A stretch of DNA of 64,000 bases from Callorhinchus milii (taxonomy: Eukaryota): positions 5,954,001 to 6,018,000 of the forward strand of contig NW_024704743.1 of NCBI RefSeq assembly GCF_018977255.1, read 5' to 3'. The notes beneath the pieces are model-generated. The model was not told where the DNA came from and ran no database searches. It saw only the letters and a list, made by a program, of their open reading frames with translations. Within the stretch, counting starts at the first letter, position 1; each line of letters starts with the position of its first letter. A program made the position numbers and the translations under genes. Below are positions 21,795 to 21,951 of this stretch, one piece after another.

Positions 21795-21895
21795 CCTAAC
21801 GTTCCACGTCCTGACATTGGGGGACTTGGTGGCTTTTGTGTTGGTGGGTTTGTTCGTGTGAGTGTCCCAGTTCTCGTTGCCTGGTTACTTCCATG
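21795..21895 (-). CDS. ABI1: ABI1 exon 5 (101 nt)
   Basis: ttgcag|CAT ... GG|gtatgt; [34 protein letters not shown], phase 0-2. Confidence 0.96.
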
Positions 21896-21951
21896 CTGCA
21901 AGAGAAATCAAATTTAACTTCATGCTGCAAGAGAAATCAAATTTAACTTCA
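21892..21951. repeat. Perfect 29-bp tandem duplication spanning the exon 5 splice acceptor
   Basis: catgctgcaagagaaatcaaatttaactt at 21892-21920 and 21921-21949. Confidence 0.97.

Follow-up and report, generated by a model that had tools for sequence, protein, structure and literature searches.

A probably near-silent tandem duplication of a splice acceptor in abi1a of the elephant shark

The closest described counterpart of the duplication reported here is the human CBS allele c.844_845ins68, a known polymorphism in which an intron end and the first exon bases (52+16 nt) are repeated in tandem to give two 3' splice sites; the downstream site is strongly favoured and the mRNA is normal, according to the sections cited of PMC2630376 and PMC7490669. 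The two CBS copies are not quite identical, a few bases being different, and a missense mutation linked to the allele is rescued by it. The title of a work cited on this allele reportedly names G-run silencers. A second natural case is the 37-bp VNTR in IVS7 of human F7, where only the exon-preserving one of the identical tandem splice sites is used and the copies are silent, although these are donor sites in many copies whose behaviour is explained by 5'-3' scanning in the cited portion of PMC1557585. The engineered duplications of the beta-globin 3' site (the Reed and Maniatis constructs) also carry a short exon piece after the first site; splicing in vitro was inefficient, one re-test described in part of PMC5389562 gave exclusively distal use, and the original work is summarised as upstream-favouring in a passage of PMC9225289. 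That paper also notes a general preference for the upstream member of alternative 3' sites in human genes, which is weaker under exon definition. RNA structure is known to intervene in the yeast COF1 and UBC13 introns, in which AGs are masked, and the gap from branch point to acceptor is reduced, by a stem formed between the two (PMC3239191, sections cited). In FGG, a junction duplication likewise created competing identical sites, but it spans 403 bp, concerns a donor site and is pathogenic, a harmful outcome (PMC9052919, in the part cited).

The locus compared here with these systems lies in abi1a (ABI1) of the elephant shark, Callorhinchus milii, within a 64-kb stretch of DNA that was analysed as a whole (the window). 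As the initial annotation had recognised, a perfect 29-bp duplication supplies a second, identical acceptor: positions 21892-21951 repeat with period 29 (2.2 copies by TRF), the identical run of 31 bases marking a 29-bp tandem duplication that has 2 bp of microhomology. Read on the minus strand, the duplicated unit joins 25 bases from the intron's 3' end to the opening 4 bases of exon 5; the resulting acceptors, with exon starts at 21924 and 21895, share every base from -27 to +3. In a repeat census covering periods of 10-300, with an identical run of at least 12 bases and at least 0.8 of the period, the only other repeat with a period above 16 in the window was a 46-bp array. Three features of the CBS type are found in abi1a, namely a junction duplication with two acceptors, its occurrence in several individuals, and dominance of the downstream site in one carrier (sample X5). 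Unlike the CBS copies, those of the elephant shark are identical and shorter (25+4 nt), no linked missense mutation is rescued, and the copies are predicted to pair with each other into a stem; the abi1a duplication was seen in all three samples that cover it, one of them by deduction from depth. The locus differs from F7 in that acceptors are duplicated and the later copy wins, and from the yeast introns in that their stem was probed in yeast, while the abi1a stem is predicted, belongs to a vertebrate and would be made by the duplication itself. Close tandem acceptors of the NAGNAG kind, with a second-step choice, were considered as a model and rejected, as the AGs are 29 nt apart with a tract of their own each, against a cut-off of at most 9 nt with shared tract and branch point (PMC9225289, passage cited). 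The duplication is probably a common or fixed, near-silent one in the manner of CBS 844ins68. Feature coordinates are collected in Table 1.

Table 1. Positions, in window coordinates, of the duplication, its splicing signals and exons of abi1a
Feature	Position	Strand	Basis
29-bp perfect tandem duplication	21892..21951	.	repeat finding; junction contigs in other samples
Upstream (duplicate) acceptor AG, exon start 21924, frame-shifting	21925..21926	-	candidate site
Downstream acceptor AG, exon start 21895, the used one	21896..21897	-	spliced contigs (X5 record 18, X9 record 25); 17/17 C. milii proteins
Predicted 18-bp inter-copy RNA stem, several G-U pairs, 11-nt loop with upstream AG	21904..21950 (21950-21933 with 21921-21904)	-	fold prediction
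Best branch-point-like 7-mer, A at 21964	21961..21969	-	simple motif score
TAG closing the shifted frame	21796..21798	-	translation
Exon 2	47946..48113	-	protein tiling
Exon 3, Abi_HHR domain	36239..36415	-	protein tiling, Pfam
Exon 4, 15-nt microexon (WLKAK)	22743..22757	-	in 10/17 C. milii proteins
Exon 5 (101 nt)	21795..21895	-	protein tiling, spliced contigs
Exon 6	19009..19155	-	identity to abl interactor 1a
Last exon, coding part to stop, SH3 domain	2629..2805	-	protein tiling, Pfam

The gene was assigned from its Abi_HHR and SH3 domains (Pfam) and its match to named ABI1. More specifically, the 48 aa of exon 6 match C. milii abl interactor 1a at 100% identity, and within the best 120 of 1808 matches the sequences from other cartilaginous fishes stand at 92-96%; six C. 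milii proteins tile exon by exon onto the window from 48113 to 2632. No convincing match to exon 1 was found within the 64-kb window. Four cassette exons on the minus strand (13558-13460, 13287-13213, 12031-11855 and 5659-5576), two of them proline-rich, are combined differently among the six ABI1 records. One record (P0001) continues beyond the exon-7 donor and ends within the intron at 15066-15039 on the minus strand, without SH3, possibly as an intronic termination isoform or a partial transcript. At 11893-11891 on the same strand the window and two records encode Ala and P0004 encodes Pro, a coding variant or a record error.

The use of the two acceptors was followed in the assembled contigs of four of 24 listed runs from the same species (X1, X2, X5 and X9), aligned to 21300-23300, of which X5 and X9 are presumed to be of RNA type from their exon-bounded contigs, no matching run being registered as RNA. 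In both of these runs, which come from two studies, the spliced contigs use the downstream site at 21895: the matching part of X5 record 18 (131 nt, depth 395.5) and of X9 record 25 (2356 nt, depth 94.3) is confined to 21897-21795, which corresponds to exon 5 from 21895 plus the AG common to the end of either upstream exon. Which upstream exon is joined is not readable from these contigs, their joints being swamped by a high-copy repeat. The listed records account for all depth in 21836-21969 in both runs; X9 has zero depth at 21903-21969, so its contigs give no duplication genotype. X5 carries the copy-copy junction and its dominant spliced contig uses 21895, a statement of dominance and not of ratio. 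Thus a carrier of the duplication makes normal ABI1 mRNA as its dominant form. In agreement, every one of the 17 protein records checked for C. milii has the downstream site, although these are mostly gene models biased to open frames. No transcript from 21924 was found among the contigs of the four aligned runs; since minor forms are lost from contigs and nonsense-mediated decay (NMD) would lower the amount of an upstream-site message, rare use could escape data of this kind. Real use of the 21924 acceptor, which the initial annotation had envisaged, finds no support in the contigs of both RNA-type runs or in the protein records, as far as dominant forms are concerned.

Were the upstream acceptor used, the consequences would be those foreseen from the outset: 29 nt are added, the frame is shifted and translation ends within exon 5 at a TAG (21798-21796), 1 nt before the exon-5 donor, whether or not the microexon is included. 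The predicted product of 196 aa (201 with the microexon) has a 42-aa shifted tail and retains most of Abi_HHR, while the proline-rich region and SH3 are lost; the N-terminal part of ABI1 is the part that binds the WAVE complex. A stop codon generally triggers NMD when an exon junction follows it by over 50 nt, and the present one, although only 1 nt before the exon 5/6 junction, lies 148 nt before the exon 6/7 junction, so that decay of an upstream-site message is probable from its sequence.

The main rival to a near-silent duplication is a leaky allele, in which the upstream acceptor would take some 10-20% of the splicing and feed NMD or the 196-201-aa product, lowering ABI1 dose without regulation. 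The junction contig of X5 is deeper (27.8) than its intronic flanks (13 and 17.6), and since 5 of its 29 words are common to an upstream-acceptor mRNA, upstream use of 14-21% would explain the excess; the depth would also follow from three copies (26.4 expected at flank 13) or from locally slower splicing. The X5 data allow upstream use of 0-21%. The identity of the acceptors from -27 to +3 is in keeping with leakage, as are the frequent preference for upstream 3' sites (PMC9225289, in the passage cited) and the damage that junction duplications such as that of FGG can cause (PMC9052919, likewise in part). In opposition, the X5 spliced contig continues without a break past the position at which a branch from upstream-site splicing would have divided it, X9 shows no depth at all over 21903-21969, and a protein with the shifted tail was not recovered from the database: no entry shares three 5-residue words with the 42-aa tail in a search of limited sensitivity, and the tail occurs in none of 120 proteins matched by the normal-frame query of exon 6, a set biased by that query. 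A leaky allele is accordingly judged unlikely.

If the duplication is near-silent, the spliceosome would mostly or entirely take the downstream copy, the extra 29 nt being removed as intron and ABI1 remaining normal; NMD could mask any leak. It is proposed that the allele persists because it is nearly silent. Core signals cannot discriminate between the two sites because the copies are identical. Moreover, the upstream copy retains the native branch-point candidates (A at 21964 and 21949; by the simple motif score 21949, 21937 and 21920 are the weaker ones), and given this context and the upstream preference of human 3' sites, bypass of the upstream site is not the default outcome. Two candidate causes may be considered. 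First, only the downstream copy abuts the purine-rich exon and has the nearer 5' donor, which may favour it through exon definition; the 29 nt after the downstream AG are 69% purine and 10% U, against 45% purine and 41% U after the upstream AG, and exon 5 is flanked by long introns. Second, the two copies may pair as an 18-bp stem with the upstream AG in its loop. With G-U pairs counted, the intron end that was copied is complementary to itself; by itself it has a predicted folding energy of -2.5 kcal/mol, whereas the doubled unit is predicted to form a stem of -15.4 kcal/mol at 37 C and -24.7 at 15 C, with pair probabilities in context of 0.98-1.0. In a control that introduced an equivalent duplication in silico at 187 acceptor-like sites of the window, an 18-bp helix was reached in 1 of 187 and the same in-context energy gain in 10 of 187, helix length and energy gain being measures picked after the fold was seen. 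Judged by energy alone, the fold does not stand out (z -1.77, 12 of 200 shuffles; 38 of 187 controls for the doubled unit). The predicted stem could hinder as well as help, because it also buries part of the downstream pyrimidine tract.

A stronger form of the second candidate would be a self-masking duplication, whose own 18-bp hairpin hides the new acceptor in its loop and thereby lets a frameshifting duplication spread; as part of this reading, what leakage is left, at most some 20% in X5, may vary with copy number or water temperature and tune ABI1 dose via NMD. This reading is distinctly improbable.

A further reading makes the upstream site a regulated poison acceptor, switched together with a neural microexon. 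The microexon (22757-22743) is indeed the preceding exon, but it was described as directly upstream of the duplication and in fact lies about 820 nt from the duplicated acceptors. The stop has an NMD geometry by way of later junctions, and mouse Abi1 is listed among the genes with nSR100-regulated microexons in the cited part of PMC4387716. In contrast, the downstream site at 21895 is used in the protein records with the microexon (10/17) and in those without it (7/17), which speaks against the coupling of acceptor choice to the microexon that had been suggested; no upstream-site transcript appears in the aligned contigs, and the undiverged copies show no sign of a selected difference. With evidence limited to the position of the stop, a regulated poison acceptor is very improbable, and the contigs and protein records examined offer no evidence for a new regulatory switch.

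Several individuals carry the duplication in their germline DNA. Its repeated run is exactly as long as the assembly word (31), which forces a two-copy allele into a loop in the assembly graph. In a k=31 graph model one copy yields a single unbroken piece, whereas two copies yield a left-hand piece that stops at 21921, together with a 59-nt piece (21892-21950 or 21893-21951) when one of the arms is lost. The observed pieces are exactly those predicted for two copies. Flank contigs of X1 and X2 end exactly at 21921, and 59-nt contigs with 0 differences cross the copy-copy junction in X2 (21892-21950, depth 2.52, below 5) and X5 (21893-21951, depth 27.8). In X1 the 21892-21950 piece is not listed and was deduced from depth, two depth bins independently needing 8.1 and 8.0 (flanks 10.0 and 10.8). 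No single contig bridges the entire duplication, the 59-nt pieces having some 29-30 letters per side against a 31-letter bridging rule, and 28 of the 29 words in the 59-nt piece are specific to the two-copy allele. The difference table of the aligned contigs contains no 29-nt deletion relative to the window. The question of one versus two copies in other animals, posed at the start, is thus answered from contigs rather than raw reads by a two-copy junction in 3 of 3 samples with intron cover (two listed, one deduced), belonging to two studies. Cover is zero in all four aligned runs at 21970-22036. Assemblers can drop short arms next to very-high-copy repeats, and this gap may reflect such a removal, with which the merged 59-nt pieces are consistent.

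The frequency and age of the duplication are less sharply constrained. With 150-nt reads assumed, the junction depth of X2 fits a heterozygote (rough probability of a homozygote 0.002-0.07), and that of X1 fits, as roughly, either zygosity, the homozygote slightly better; contigs of a heterozygote cannot reveal a one-copy allele. Polymorphism, one of the origins initially proposed, is thus possible from X2, which may be heterozygous, but finds no decision in X1, and because of X2 a common polymorphism and fixation are indistinguishable. The perfect identity of the copies had also been taken to imply a very recent event. This does not follow: if 0.5-2e-9 changes per site per year are assumed, 29 bp could stay identical for 26-103 Myr, and C. 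milii is reported to evolve more slowly at neutral sites than any other vertebrate in the comparison (PMC3964593, in the part cited); identity is weak evidence on age. The duplication may have arisen in the germline by slippage or microhomology repair, as the 2-bp microhomology suggests. A DNA hairpin was rejected as its cause, the unit folding at only -0.4 to -0.6 kcal/mol.

A private or very recent mutation of the sequenced individual would agree with the perfect identity of the copies, but is highly unlikely in view of the junction in all three other samples covering the intron (one by deduction). X1, X2 and X5 share six differences from the window (21452, 21477, 21486, 21495, 22383 and 22653), one of them a T-run insertion, and differ among themselves at 21373 and 21555; on both counts they are unlikely to be the source of the window. 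Close kinship with the reference animal would weaken the case against a private mutation. Four of the six window-specific sites fall within 44 bp, and the six may represent a distinct haplotype or assembly errors. An assembly artefact in a genome holding one copy, raised in the initial annotation and in line with a 31-base run at a common assembler word size and with a window that may hold errors (6 shared differences within 2 kb), is scarcely credible and was rejected, because junction-only words were assembled in independent samples from two studies and flank contigs break exactly at the two-copy graph position, with no 29-nt deletion listed.

The locus amounts to a natural controlled competition between splice sites, in which acceptors identical over 30 bases and 29 nt apart compete in a conserved gene and the later one wins, and it is suited to a minigene test of exon definition, scanning and RNA structure in 3' site choice. 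It also cautions interpreters of variants that an acceptor duplication need not equal loss of function, and its significance would be greater if the predicted hairpin did neutralise the copy. No earlier report of the abi1a duplication was found in the largely open-access literature searched.

Several other repeats were observed in the window. A fragment of a very-high-copy interspersed repeat, on which contigs stack in their tens of thousands, lies at 22071-22192, the duplicated acceptor following about 120 nt downstream; related copies of the repeat occur in intron 3 near 26900, 28600, 33450 and 33730. Intron 3 also contains nested inverted repeats (27304-27546 with 28336-28527, and 27659-27718 with 28821-28880), some 0.8-1.1 kb apart and 76-92% complementary, which are probably inverted mobile-element copies and could pair in the pre-mRNA. 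The 46-bp tandem array (49745-49910; 3.6 copies, 99% identical) is C/T-rich and situated in intron 1, upstream of exon 2 on the minus strand. Finally, 52001-54000 is a strongly G-rich, GC-skewed stretch (GC 0.55, skew 0.44), unlike the remaining window.
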